From a virus, in UHGV virus genome UHGV-0323875: DNA of 33,005 nt; one strand, 5' to 3'. This document shows positions 3,911 through 6,079 of the stretch, piece after piece. The notes beneath the pieces were generated by a model. The model ran no database searches, was not told the DNA's origin, and worked only from the letters and a program-made list of their open reading frames with translations. A program made the position numbers and the translations under genes. Position 1 is the stretch's first letter, and every line of letters starts with the position of its first letter.

Positions 3911-4273
3911 TTAACGACCTGCTGCGCGGAGTTTTCCGTCAGGTTCACCGGCAAGAGTCAGTAACTGTCCCTGGTCTTCCTGCAGAATAGTCAGGCGACC
4001 ACCGCGATTGACATACATCGGCGTTTCGGTGGTGTCTTCTTCGGAAATTTTCCCGCGGTTAGTCGGGCGAACATATGAGAGTTTGTGTTTGATTTTCACA
4101 CGGTTCTCATCAAATGGTTCGATTTCCAGGTTGAGTGAGACCTTACCTTTGGTTTTCGTGTTCATCACACCGGAAGCGACTTCACTGAGAACTGCGCCGA
4201 TTTTGGTTTCAAATACGCCGCCGTCCAGCTCCCCGATAAATGCCTGCACATCAGTACTGCGTTCGCTAGCCAT
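3911..4273 (-). CDS. Hypothetical prophage protein, 120 aa (YfdP-like)
   Basis: Start MASERSTD preceded by a GAGGAG RBS; the upstream extension to 4591 in the ORF track is GC-rich non-coding-looking sequence. Confidence 0.5.
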   Translation of the reverse strand: MASERSTDVQAFIGELDGGVFETKIGAVLSEVASGVMNTKTKGKVSLNLEIEPFDENRVKIKHKLSYVRPTNRGKISEEDTTETPMYVNRGGRLTILQEDQGQLLTLAGEPDGKLRAAGR

Positions 4274-4710
4274 TTTGCTGCTCCTCATCATATCGACCCT
4301 GCAAGGCCGATTAGTTTCTCCACAAAACAGAGAAGAACACCTGCGGTGGCAGCCGCCCGGATGGATTGGGTTATGAGCCCGTCGTCCGGTGATGCTCTTC
4401 TCTGTTTTGTAAAAAGGACGGTACCAGCCGGAAGCAAGGGTACAAACTGGTACCGCCAGGACTACACACAGCATAAAGTTGTGGTGCCGGGTGCCTCCCG
4501 GTGCCTGGCGAAGGTTGCACACCAGACGGGTGGGTATCCACAGAAGGTCGACTGTCAGCCTCAACCTTAACCCGCGTGCGCTGAGCCGCATTCACCACAA
4601 CGCTAAGGATTCTCTCTGGTTGAAAATACTTAGCTGTTATGTGCCTGTCTTTTCACCACTTCAGGCTCGGTGGTATCCTTTTAAGCCCGTATACATAAAA
4701 GGAAAATCAA

Positions 4711-4860
4711 ATGACTTTTGATGAAAAAGAACTTGATAATGCAATTAATAAAATCATCGTAACGTCGCTCTTTTCCTGTCTCAGCGACACTCAGCAGAAA
4801 CAGTTCTACGAATCGGCTTTCAACATGATCGAGCGTTGTTGTTTCTGCGATGCCGACTAG
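4711..4860 (+). CDS. Small hypothetical protein, 49 aa
   Basis: ATG with an AAGGA RBS; MTFDEKELDNAINKII...; below the ORF-track size cut-off. Confidence 0.35.
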   Translation: MTFDEKELDNAINKIIVTSLFSCLSDTQQKQFYESAFNMIERCCFCDAD

Positions 4861-4873
4861 TTACCTGAAAAAA

Positions 4874-5149
4874 TCAGGAAACAGTTGGCTGATGCTCTTC
4901 GAGTGCGACTTTCTGACCAATTTTCTGAAATGTGCTCTCCGAATTTGGACAAATAGAAAAAGGCCATTTCCATTCAGGGTCTGATGGAAATACTTCAGCC
5001 TGTTCCAAAGCACGGCGTAAAGAGAACACAACTCCAGCCATAATCTGATGTTTCCCATTGGCCCAGCTATCGCCGCTCTGATCTACATGGGCGGCTATGT
5101 CGTATGACCAAACGACTTCACCACTATTGTTTAAAATCTGGACTTTCAT
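4874..5149 (-). CDS. Hypothetical protein, about 91 aa, first gene of the leftward operon downstream of cI
   Basis: ORF 4874..5170; an AGGTG RBS favours the internal start MKVQILNN. Confidence 0.4.
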   Translation of the reverse strand: MKVQILNNSGEVVWSYDIAAHVDQSGDSWANGKHQIMAGVVFSLRRALEQAEVFPSDPEWKWPFSICPNSESTFQKIGQKVALEEHQPTVS

Positions 5150-5275
5150 TTCATACACCTGCTTTAACATGAGTGCCTAGTGGCACAACATGACTCAACG
5201 AATCATCCTGGACTTCATATGCCCCAGGCGGCTACTTCGTGGGCGTCCTGCCTGTTCGTTATTTTTGATATAAAA

Positions 5276-5289
5276 TCTAACTTAACTTA
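5276..5289. promoter_or_regulatory. Putative repressor operator (OL-like), palindrome CTAACTTAACTTAG
   Basis: Same CTAA(G/C)-N4-CTTAG architecture as the two sites between cI and cro. Confidence 0.45.
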
Positions 5290-5355
5290 GTTATTATGGC
5301 AAGAGAAAACACCAAACTTTTCTTAGTTCGGTGCCTTAGTTAGAGAAGAGAGGTC

Positions 5356-6004: not shown

Positions 6005-6067
6005 CTAAGTAATCTTAGTTTTTATTGACCAAAGATAGATTTGTAATTAGCATCTAATAAAACTTAG
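6005..6067. promoter_or_regulatory. OR-like region: two 14 bp palindromic operators (6005..6018 CTAAGTAATCTTAG; 6054..6067 CTAATAAAACTTAG) with a TTGACC -35-like hexamer for rightward transcription
   Basis: Repeated inverted half-sites CTAAG/CTTAG in the cI-cro intergenic region; the site at 6054 sits just upstream of the cro RBS. Confidence 0.5.
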
Positions 6068-6079
6068 TTTGGAGGGCGT

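Follow-up and report, generated by a model that had tools for sequence, protein, structure and literature searches.

A conserved composite of structured RNA elements, very probably including a divergent relative of STnc100, in the early-left operon of an SfV-like prophage

Between two leftward genes of the viral genome UHGV-0323875 lie several hundred nucleotides (nt) that do not appear to encode a protein. What do they contain, and what could they do? We addressed this question for positions 4274-4710 of the window, that is, of the whole stretch of 33,005 nt that was analysed. A sequence-only reading had described this region as a GC-rich non-coding stretch with internal inverted repeats, which could encode a structured regulatory RNA or hold binding sites. 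Over bases 4200-4900, the sequence shares 99.7% identity with Shigella flexneri phage SfV (BLAST). The region corresponds to the interval between orf32 and orf33 of the SfV record, both annotated as 'unknown'; these genes belong to the leftward arm, which extends from cI to xis and int. It is an untranslated spacer of the PL operon in an SfV-like Shigella/E. coli lambdoid prophage. We are highly confident that it is a composite of conserved early-left RNA elements and that one of these, a 124-nt core RNA, is a divergent relative of the STnc100 family.

The absence of a convincing open reading frame (ORF), already noticed in the sequence-only reading, is borne out. Four ORFs overlap the region, two on the minus strand (4591-4274, an extension of orf32, and 4598-4371) and two on the plus strand (4346-4570 and 4479-4721). 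None of the four has a Pfam domain. All are disrupted in relatives (e14, A20, mEp460_4F5, ST64B, 118970_sal3, phiNP and Lys8385Vzw), where they carry indels of 1, 2, 4, 5 and 20 nt and in-frame stops. Substitutions among the relatives of the region are spread evenly over the three codon positions, with no third-position excess. Because of these broken frames, the lack of a Pfam domain and the even substitutions, the region is non-coding. A protein could still be imagined as an extended orf32 (226 amino acids (aa), as in SfIV), as a YmfH-like protein or as the product of one of the 74-80-aa ORFs. The orf32 frame is indeed open to 4591, SfIV_34 and K-12 ymfH are annotated over the region, and PHROG families match two of the ORFs. 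These are families of unknown function, themselves built from predicted ORFs, and substitutions track base pairing, not codons. Together with the disrupted frames, this makes protein coding extremely improbable, for the four ORFs as well as for ymfH and the extended orf32.

The ymfH annotation illustrates the point. The e14 prophage of E. coli K-12 carries a copy of the region at 90.8% identity, and ymfH (103 aa, no Pfam domain) is annotated over the core, terminator and hairpin of this copy (L013 3082-3393, about 4620-4300 in the window). Judging from its sequence, ymfH is probably not a protein gene. A similar case is found in SfIV, where three overlapping ORFs, SfIV_34, 35 and 36, are annotated over the same RNA sequence.

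An Rfam search, a comparative alignment and structure prediction had been among the checks proposed for a structured RNA. A full-length match to STnc100 (RF02076), from 4631 to 4409 on the minus strand and covering model positions 1-206, has E = 2e-7 in the 801 nt searched and 8.4e-6 in the whole window, with a score of 41.2 bits that stays under the family cut-off of 47. It is the only hit below E = 0.1 in the whole window, where nothing reaches an Rfam gathering score; hits to ftsZ-DE, hairpin-ribozyme and cyano-S1 have E > 0.8 and are chance matches. Both GGUGAAU and CACCGGGAGGCACCCGGCACC are present in the STnc100 match, and a 23-mer is identical to the consensus. Relatives of the core were collected with a search pattern made of the two most conserved motifs, which pulled 120 viral contigs and 120 genome stretches. 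Over 156 distinct relatives, all core helices covary, as does a pseudoknot.

The core RNA (4478..4601; this element and those described below are read on the minus strand) was defined using Rfam, RNAalifold and a permutation test. It is closed by helix P1, which pairs 4593-4601 with 4478-4486. The unpaired bases AAU (4590-4592) lead to helix P2 (4574-4589), which is followed by segment X (AAGGUUG, 4562-4568). Hairpin Y (4503-4527) holds in its loop a segment X' (CAACCUU, 4511-4517) complementary to X, and comes just before hairpin P5 (CCGGG-AGGCA-CCCGG, 4487-4501). Two sequence classes of the core are distinguished, a 'GCGG' class with GGUGAAUGCGGCUNAGCGCACGCGG (early-left, Rac and Qin cores) and a 'CCCC' class with GGUGAAUCCCCCUGUGCGGAGGGGC (canonical STnc100). 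RNAalifold on 49 representatives gives 19 core pairs, 10 of which show compensatory changes. Five positions of P1 covary, as in GUUGUGGUG/CACCACAAC, GCAUGGUG/CACCAUGC and GAUGCGGUG/CACCGCAUC. Three positions of P2 flip between G-C and C-G from one class to the other, and the P5 stem becomes CCUGG/CCAGG in 13 sequences. P1, P2 and P5 covary jointly over both classes.

Because MAFFT failed to bring the pseudoknot and hairpin Y of the different classes into register, these elements were tested with a permutation procedure. Hairpin Y forms in every sequence, with 84 distinct stems. The X/X' pair is AAGGUUG/CAACCUU in SfV, AAGGCUG/CAGCCUU in phiES15, CAGUUAA/UUAACUG in Rac and CUGGUG/CACCGG in canonical STnc100; further pairs are AGACUGACAAA/UUUGUCAGUCU and UAUCAGUAC/GUACUGAUA. 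Over 121 distinct combinations, which include 72 distinct duplex sequences, cognate X and X' form 6.8 base pairs (bp) on average, versus 5.07 +/- 0.10 after permutation, and none of 1000 permutations reaches the cognate value. A short helix that closes a variable insert is supported by the same approach. Several helices of the core thus meet in a junction that a loop-to-junction pseudoknot holds in place, and the unpaired bases AAU, those of the P2 loop and AGGCA are near-invariant.

The SfV core shares with STnc100 the closing helix GGUG...CACC, the AAU junction, P2, the variable insert, the penultimate hairpin and CCGGG-AGGCA-CCCGG. Both are prophage-borne and belong to Enterobacterales. In both, a linker leads from the core to an intrinsic terminator, which lies about 30 nt past the core in 30 of 35 canonical copies, the same layout as in SfV. 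The two differ in several respects. P2 belongs to the 'GCGG' class in SfV and to the 'CCCC' class in canonical copies, and the SfV terminator module is DicF-like. The nested structure line in the cmscan output for STnc100 does not show the loop-to-junction pseudoknot. Finally, the SfV core lies in the early-left PL operon, whereas canonical copies lie downstream of stx2B or the Q region of the late operon. In Stx phages, canonical STnc100 lies 75 nt downstream of stx2B. There, it overlaps the Hfq-bound RNA EcOnc27/sRNA103 (PMC12711010). A further relative of STnc100, PasD of enteropathogenic E. coli (EPEC), is an abundant Hfq-associated small RNA (sRNA) (bioRxiv 10.64898/2026.05.13.724894, a 2026 preprint).

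Past the core, the single-stranded linker UUUAUGCUGUGUGUAGUCC (19 nt, 4459..4477) is unpaired in the fold and conserved, which makes it a candidate sRNA seed. The linker sequence AUUGCUGUGUGUAGUCUU is conserved in SfV, e14, Rac-SA53, phiNP, ST64B and phiES15 despite differing flanks, and the variant AGCCACUGCUU occurs in A20, mEp460_4F5 and Lys8385Vzw. The linker is followed by a DicF-like intrinsic terminator (4411..4458), made of the hairpin UGGCGGUACCAG...CUGGUACCGUC (4417-4458) and UUUUU (4411-4415). The terminator arms are perfectly complementary over 9 nt (inverted repeat I4) and the folded stem has 13 bp (z = -3.6). On sequence, a 13-bp hairpin directly before a U-tract on the minus strand is what an intrinsic terminator looks like. 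A simple terminator scan misses this hairpin because its loop is longer than 8 nt; the same scan finds no further strong intrinsic terminator in the early-left operon. Hfq-dependent sRNAs usually share this layout, in which a conserved single-stranded stretch leads into a terminator hairpin with a U-tail.

The DicF model (RF00039) aligns weakly, with 15.7 bits and E = 1.5, and over the terminator hairpin only. When the SfV hairpin is aligned with bona fide DicF hairpins, the stem base and the U-tract are common and the stems covary; the shared base is UGGCGGUAYCAGUU...CCGCCCUUUUU. The single-stranded part on the 5' side is UGCUGUGUGUAGUC in SfV versus UUUCUGGUGACGUU in DicF. The likeness extends to the operon. 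As in the dicBF operon of Qin (ydfABC-dicF-dicB), an sRNA-like segment inside a leftward lambdoid operon under repressor control ends at an intrinsic terminator. Downstream genes need read-through, a long double-stranded helix lies beside the terminator, and the same core is found in the operon. The order differs, in that the core precedes the terminator in SfV and follows it in Qin and Rac, and the downstream gene is yfdP-like in SfV instead of a division inhibitor.

In Qin-type contigs (L048, L130), DicF (UUUUCUGGUGACGUUUGGCGGUAUCAGUUUUACUCCGUGACUGCUCUGCCGCCCUUUUU) is followed after 20 nt by the core GGUGAAU, and a dicB-like gene begins 33 nt past the core. In Rac-SA53 (L012 2640-2873), a DicF-like RNA (41.1 bits) is followed by the core, then by kilR. 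P1 is an 18-bp helix in Rac/Qin-type cores and, in the Qin type, the extended P1 begins about 10 nt after the DicF U-tract. Rac/Qin cores end 0-50 nt before kilR or dicB. The DicF plus core segment of the Rac/Qin type is found in 4641 of 5426 complete E. coli genomes (about 85%), K-12 derivatives included, with no RNA feature in the sampled rows; in RefSeq genomes, the Qin-type segment lies between a DUF1482 gene and dicB. DicF is produced by intrinsic termination and RNase E trimming, and RNase III acts on the full-length or read-through RNA to give a 72-nt form (PMC9438474, a review). By our own count, the cut that generates the 72-nt form would fall inside the 5' strand of the Qin-type P1, 19 nt past the end of the 53-nt form.

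Next to the terminator lies the repeat that had first drawn attention to the region. The arm ACAAAACAGAGAAGAAC is confirmed at 4322-4338. Its complementary partner, GCTCTTCTCTGTTTTGT, is also real, at 4394-4410, one base off the position 4395-4411 first given. The sole mismatch of this pair, A-C when read on the plus strand, corresponds to a G-U wobble on the minus strand. Over its whole length, the inverted repeat comprises two arms of 25 nt (4322-4346 and 4386-4410) with 84% complementarity. Watson-Crick matches alone amount to 21 out of 25, when the best of 100 dinucleotide shuffles of the region gives 19. This inverted repeat is real and exceeds chance.

On the minus strand, this repeat forms a long conserved hairpin of 89 nt (4322..4410; -51.2 kcal/mol, z = -7.8) with a structured conserved apex, which starts right after the terminator U-tract. 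A pattern derived from the conserved apical part retrieved the hairpin from more than 120 viral contigs, among which 35 different pairs of arms occur. RNAalifold on 21 long hairpins predicts a 20-bp stem. Five of its pairs show compensatory changes, such as G-C replaced by C-G in 10 sequences or C-G replaced by A-U in 4. With its conserved stem of 20-25 bp, the hairpin is a candidate RNase III site, by analogy with the 72-nt form of DicF. Covariation in every core helix, in the pseudoknot and in the long hairpin upholds the proposal of a structured RNA; that this RNA is regulatory is what we infer. The 3' arm of the hairpin contains a boxA-like UGCUCUU, considered as part of a possible nut site. 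This motif varies together with its pairing partner (AAGAGC/GCUCUU, AAGAAC/GUUCUU, AAGGGC/GCCCUU); the boxA-like UGYUCUU is therefore part of a stem and not a conserved single-stranded NusB/E site.

Further downstream come the conserved GGAGAAAC (4314-4321), with few changes across contigs, and a small GC hairpin with a UUGCAG loop (4294-4309), the stem of which varies while a GCAG-type loop is mostly kept. These elements precede the ribosome-binding site of the yfdP/sb37-like gene, here orf32, with its Shine-Dalgarno sequence GAGGAG at 4280-4285 and its start codon at 4271-4273 (4271..4285 as a whole).

Upstream of the core, a conserved 5' module (4635..4679) comprises a hairpin CCAC/GUGG (4655-4674) with a GCCUGA loop, then AAAAGACAGGCACAUAACA. 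It is 89-96% identical in Klebsiella phages and Rac-SA53, though their remaining sequence has diverged, and it also aligns in phiES15 and 118970_sal3. The fold of this module alone is not significant (z = -0.03). Within it, GCCUG and CAGGC could pair with each other. Between the module and the core, a local hairpin GCUAAGGAUUCUC / GAAAAUACUUAGC (4602..4634; inverted repeat I2 and minimum-energy fold) is present in SfV, e14, SfIV and A20 and absent in Kp4882. In 118970_sal3, an insertion at this place (L005 ~2560-2640) contains the tRNA T-arm-like sequence GGTTCGATTCC. ARAGORN calls no tRNA in this insertion.

Which strand carries the signal? The 341-nt stretch folds with z = -5.7 relative to shuffles on the minus strand versus -3.0 on the plus strand. 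The U-tract after hairpin 4417-4458 exists on the minus strand only. A U-G pair of P2 is found in 49 of 49 aligned sequences, and would be a C-A mismatch on the other strand. The same holds for G-U and U-G pairs of P1 and for a U-G pair of the long hairpin found in 19 of 21 sequences. From these conserved wobble pairs, the terminator U-tract and the better fold, the signal is on the minus strand, which is the sense strand of the PL operon. A signal in the DNA itself or on the plus strand, whether sites bound by the repressor or another protein, an antisense RNA or a promoter that serves the rightward ORF 4711-4860, would find some support in a weak terminator-like hairpin at 4655-4674 (+), in the Shine-Dalgarno sequence of that ORF and in the plus-strand fold. 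The plus-strand z-score is nevertheless expected as the mirror image of a structured minus strand, and the conserved G-U pairs fit the minus strand only. The promoter scan reports no promoter-like site on either strand within 4274-4710, and the binding sites suggested by the sequence-only reading receive no support within the region, since the repressor operator repeats lie only at 5275-5328 and 6005-6070. We therefore regard a DNA-level or plus-strand signal as very unlikely. A separate promoter for the core, upstream of it on the minus strand (AAGACA-17-TATTTT, ~4647-4619), is also unlikely: it matches at 8 of 12 positions, is not reported by the scan and lacks its -10 part in Kp4882.

The description of the region as GC-rich holds only against its immediate flanks. 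The central part, 4300-4600, has 56.8% GC compared with 36-50% in these flanks. Against the window, the difference is slight (52.4% for the region versus 51.8%), and 57% of equal-sized windows reach or exceed the GC content of the region.

Two repressor operators of the family CTAAG-N6-CTTAG (5275-5292 and 5311-5328) lie on the OL/PL side of cI (5982->5356, minus strand, in the leftward arm) and two (6005-6021 and 6054-6070) in the cI/cro intergenic region, on the OR/PR side. A putative PL promoter on the minus strand (-35 at 5297-5302, -10 at 5274-5279; promoter scan) is overlapped by the two left operators. This promoter-like site, at 5274-5302, is likely PL, as read from its sequence, and would drive orf33, then the spacer. 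Because the same operator family on both sides of cI defines OL/PL and OR/PR, orf33 (5170->4874, minus strand) is the first gene after the putative PL, in the position of lambda N. About 600 nt without a credible gene separate the orf33 stop from the start of orf32 (yfdP-like, 4273->3911, minus strand; ORF list, SfV annotation and a match to phrog_204). The leftward gene beginning at 4273 is as previously noted. Next leftward comes orf31 (DUF2303/YfdQ, minus strand; Pfam/PHROG). The orf33 product is not arginine-rich and its PHROG assignment is a family of unknown function. By PHROG, the phage encodes proteins like CII and O as well as a Q-like antiterminator. A scan of the PL-adjacent ORFs and of ten further ORFs, nine of which are in the rightward PR operon, found none that is N-like.

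Taken together, these observations lead us to favor, with moderate confidence, a cassette resembling the dicBF operon, from which a terminated sRNA is released and in which the read-through RNA is processed at the long hairpin. Transcription from PL would pass orf33 into the spacer, so that the 124-nt core would be made first, then the single-stranded stretch, then the terminator. Polymerases stopping at about 4411 would release a terminated RNA of ~200-270 nt. Trimming on the 5' side, as in DicF, would leave an Hfq-type sRNA composed of the UGCUGUGUGUAGUC stretch and the terminator hairpin, which would act in trans on host mRNAs. Polymerases that do not stop there would go on to copy the 25-bp hairpin that immediately follows the U-tract. 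We read this hairpin as a candidate RNase III site because SfV has the parts of dicBF reordered, as core, DicF-like terminator and separate 25-bp helix. By analogy, RNase III would probably cut there, separating the sRNA from the orf32 (yfdP)-orf31 message and setting the 5' end of that message.

Several points weigh against this cassette model. With its multi-way junction, pseudoknot and near-invariant bases, the core greatly exceeds in complexity what an sRNA would require for base pairing. Some cores, moreover, have no terminator of their own and lead directly into kilR or dicB. The model therefore leaves the best-conserved part of the region unexplained. As regards family membership, the STnc100 score of 41.2 bits, against a gathering score of 47, compares with 207.7 for a canonical copy, and the SfV terminator, at 15.7 bits, is well below the at least 48 bits, including the ftsZ-pairing 5' region, that characterize DicF. 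That GGUGAAU and AGGCACC hardly vary is in part a consequence of the search pattern, though BLAST-derived relatives keep GGUGAAU as well. RNase III cleavage at the long hairpin is proposed by analogy. Expression, 3'-end or processing data for the SfV or e14 copy were not found in the searchable literature.

Could the region instead act purely in cis? As a leader and processing region, it would shield the 600-nt spacer from Rho and RNases, offer RNase III sites and tune translation of orf32, kilR or dicB, with no role in trans. The 600 nt left untranslated between the orf33 stop and the orf32 start are consistent with this, and so is the placement of Rac/Qin cores immediately before kilR and dicB, which encode toxic division inhibitors. 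Moreover, the long hairpin, GGAGAAAC and the small hairpin accompany yfdP/sb37-like genes in more than 120 contigs, and RNase III processing of dicBF read-through RNA is documented (PMC9438474). Passive protection, however, leaves unexplained the invariant unpaired bases and the conserved stretch beside an Hfq-type terminator. Relatives of the core were recovered as Hfq-bound RNAs, and e14 retains the whole RNA region although yfdP is deleted. Overall, we consider an exclusively cis-acting leader unlikely.

A different cis-acting role is suggested by Lys8385Vzw. There, the repressor gene is followed by a terminator, then by two operators that mirror those of PR, with a promoter TTGACA-18-TACATT between and over them. 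A divergent A20-type core starts about 8 nt after the -10 box, and is followed by a strong, DicF-like terminator, the long hairpin and yfdP. The promoter-proximal PL transcript thus consists of core and terminator, with nothing coding ahead of the terminator. The putL RNA of HK022 occupies the same position, just downstream of PL (PMC9378689). By its place, the core could be a put-like antiterminator standing in for N and nut in phages devoid of N, its nascent fold binding polymerase or recruiting a factor. It would let polymerase read past the 4411 terminator and past any stops farther on, whether intrinsic or Rho-dependent, and the terminated 'sRNA' would be a by-product of unmodified polymerases. 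Put RNAs suppress termination in cis without protein factors, and mutating the zinc-binding domain in the beta' subunit of RNA polymerase blocks their action. Expression of kilR depends on Rho/NusG termination.

Several features agree with such an antiterminator. A Q-like protein, but no N-like one, is found among the tested ORFs of SfV. The fold is complex, of the grade of a protein-binding RNA, and the core family is always sense-oriented in long phage operons (PL, late). Like the put RNAs of HK022 and HK639, the core is a structured RNA made shortly after PL in a lambdoid phage that lacks N, before the terminators that precede the early-left genes; HK639 likewise has a single copy, in the left operon. 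Expression of Rac kilR is reported to be tightly repressed (PMC12711010). Against it, the core shows no resemblance in sequence or structure to HK022 putL/putR or to the annotated putL-like RNA of HK639. The put RNAs of HK022 and HK639 resemble each other, with two stems in about 70 nt, whereas the core has a multi-way junction and a pseudoknot in about 125 nt. BLAST of the region against fetched loci meant to include the HK022 immunity region gave no HK022 match. Rac and Qin cores lie downstream of the DicF terminator and would be of no help in passing it, and canonical copies lie in late operons antiterminated by Q, where they would be redundant. There is a single copy in the window and none in the PR operon: Rfam and motif searches of the window found no second core that could be a putR-like partner. 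We find it quite unlikely that the core represents a new class of transcription-control RNA of N-less lambdoid prophages (SfV, ST64B, e14, Rac, Qin), put-like in function with an unrelated fold.

A classical nut site does not fit. In lambda, the RNA signals of the PL leader that govern terminator read-through and processing of the early message are nutL, tL1 and an RNase III site in the N leader. The likeness of the SfV region to this leader is one of position only, as RNA signals in the PL leader. The boxA-like bases covary in a stem, and no N-like family was found in the PL-proximal and ten further ORFs. P5, like boxB, has a 5-bp stem and a 5-nt loop, but AGGCA is not GNRA-like.

If the core were nevertheless an antiterminator, it would decide whether transcription from PL passes the terminators guarding kilR, dicB, the yfdP operon and xis/int, and the STnc100, PasD and EcOnc27 sRNAs would be the terminated leaders of such switches. 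The core is a candidate answer to the question of how N-less SfV, ST64B, e14 and Rac pass their early-left terminators, and likewise a candidate for the gating of the division inhibitors KilR and DicB. Natural compensatory variants of the pseudoknot make both questions directly testable. One covarying fold unites STnc100/PasD/EcOnc27, the dicF-dicB spacer, the kilR leader and the SfV-type early-left leader. STnc100, PasD, EcOnc27, DicF and RNase III processing of the dicBF RNA are already known. We did not find in the searchable literature, which leaves out most papers in subscription journals (for example work of the 1990s on dicF-like prophages), the early-left class, its occurrence under ymfH, in the kilR leader or in the dicF-dicB spacer, the pseudoknot or the yfdP leader hairpin; nor did we find there any description of an RNA at e14/ymfH. 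Annotations deserve correction accordingly: the region is mostly blank in SfV, covered by overlapping ORFs in SfIV and by ymfH in K-12, and carries 'hypothetical protein' or nothing in RefSeq for the sampled E. coli.

The same STnc100-like element, below the Rfam threshold, is found on the repressor's strand downstream of the repressor gene in SfII, SfIV, mEp460_4F5, ST64B and 118970_sal3 (both from Salmonella), phiES15 (Cronobacter), Kp4882-1 (Klebsiella) and Rac-SA53. Homology is modular: some phages have the 5' module in common, others the core, and others the terminator and long hairpin together. Of 5426 complete E. coli genomes, 2846 (about half) match the SfV-type region partly or fully, and coverage reaches 80% or more in 1850 of these. 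Genome matches that pass the pairing checks all belong to Enterobacterales, except two probable contaminant contigs. The genera with the core are Escherichia, Shigella, Citrobacter, Klebsiella, Raoultella, Kosakonia, Pantoea and others. Apparent matches beyond Enterobacterales (Gemmataceae, Arthrobacter, Acidobacteria and others) failed the P5 pairing test, and about 130 chance matches are estimated in 596 Gb.

Some variations were observed in these genomes. Two same-strand copies of the core, 100-660 nt apart, occur in some prophages (L021, L071, L120; Superficieibacter L280, L284, L298, L307). Some Stx2c phages combine a canonical late STnc100 with a DicF-like terminator and long hairpin in the early-left operon, where an A20-type core probably comes before them. 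A core without P5 is carried by a phage-plasmid of E. coli 2015C-3108 (L015 2501-2609), where it is flanked by a tRNA array and an SPFH gene, with a Tad2 anti-Thoeris gene nearby.

At the right edge of the region, the SfV record, which has no feature over most of it, shows a weak 'putative terminator' at 4691-4723 of the window (minus strand), called doubtful. As previously noted, a rightward ORF of 49 aa with a good Shine-Dalgarno sequence follows at 4711-4860 (+). The promoter scan found no promoter for it. The ORF matches positions 1-49 of the 81-position phrog_3311 and may be a truncated gene. The rightward arms of ST64B (L004 21-97) and Lys8385Vzw (L010 128-313) encode isrK, above Rfam cut-offs, and that of Lys8385Vzw also carries a C4 antisense RNA, again above the Rfam cut-off.

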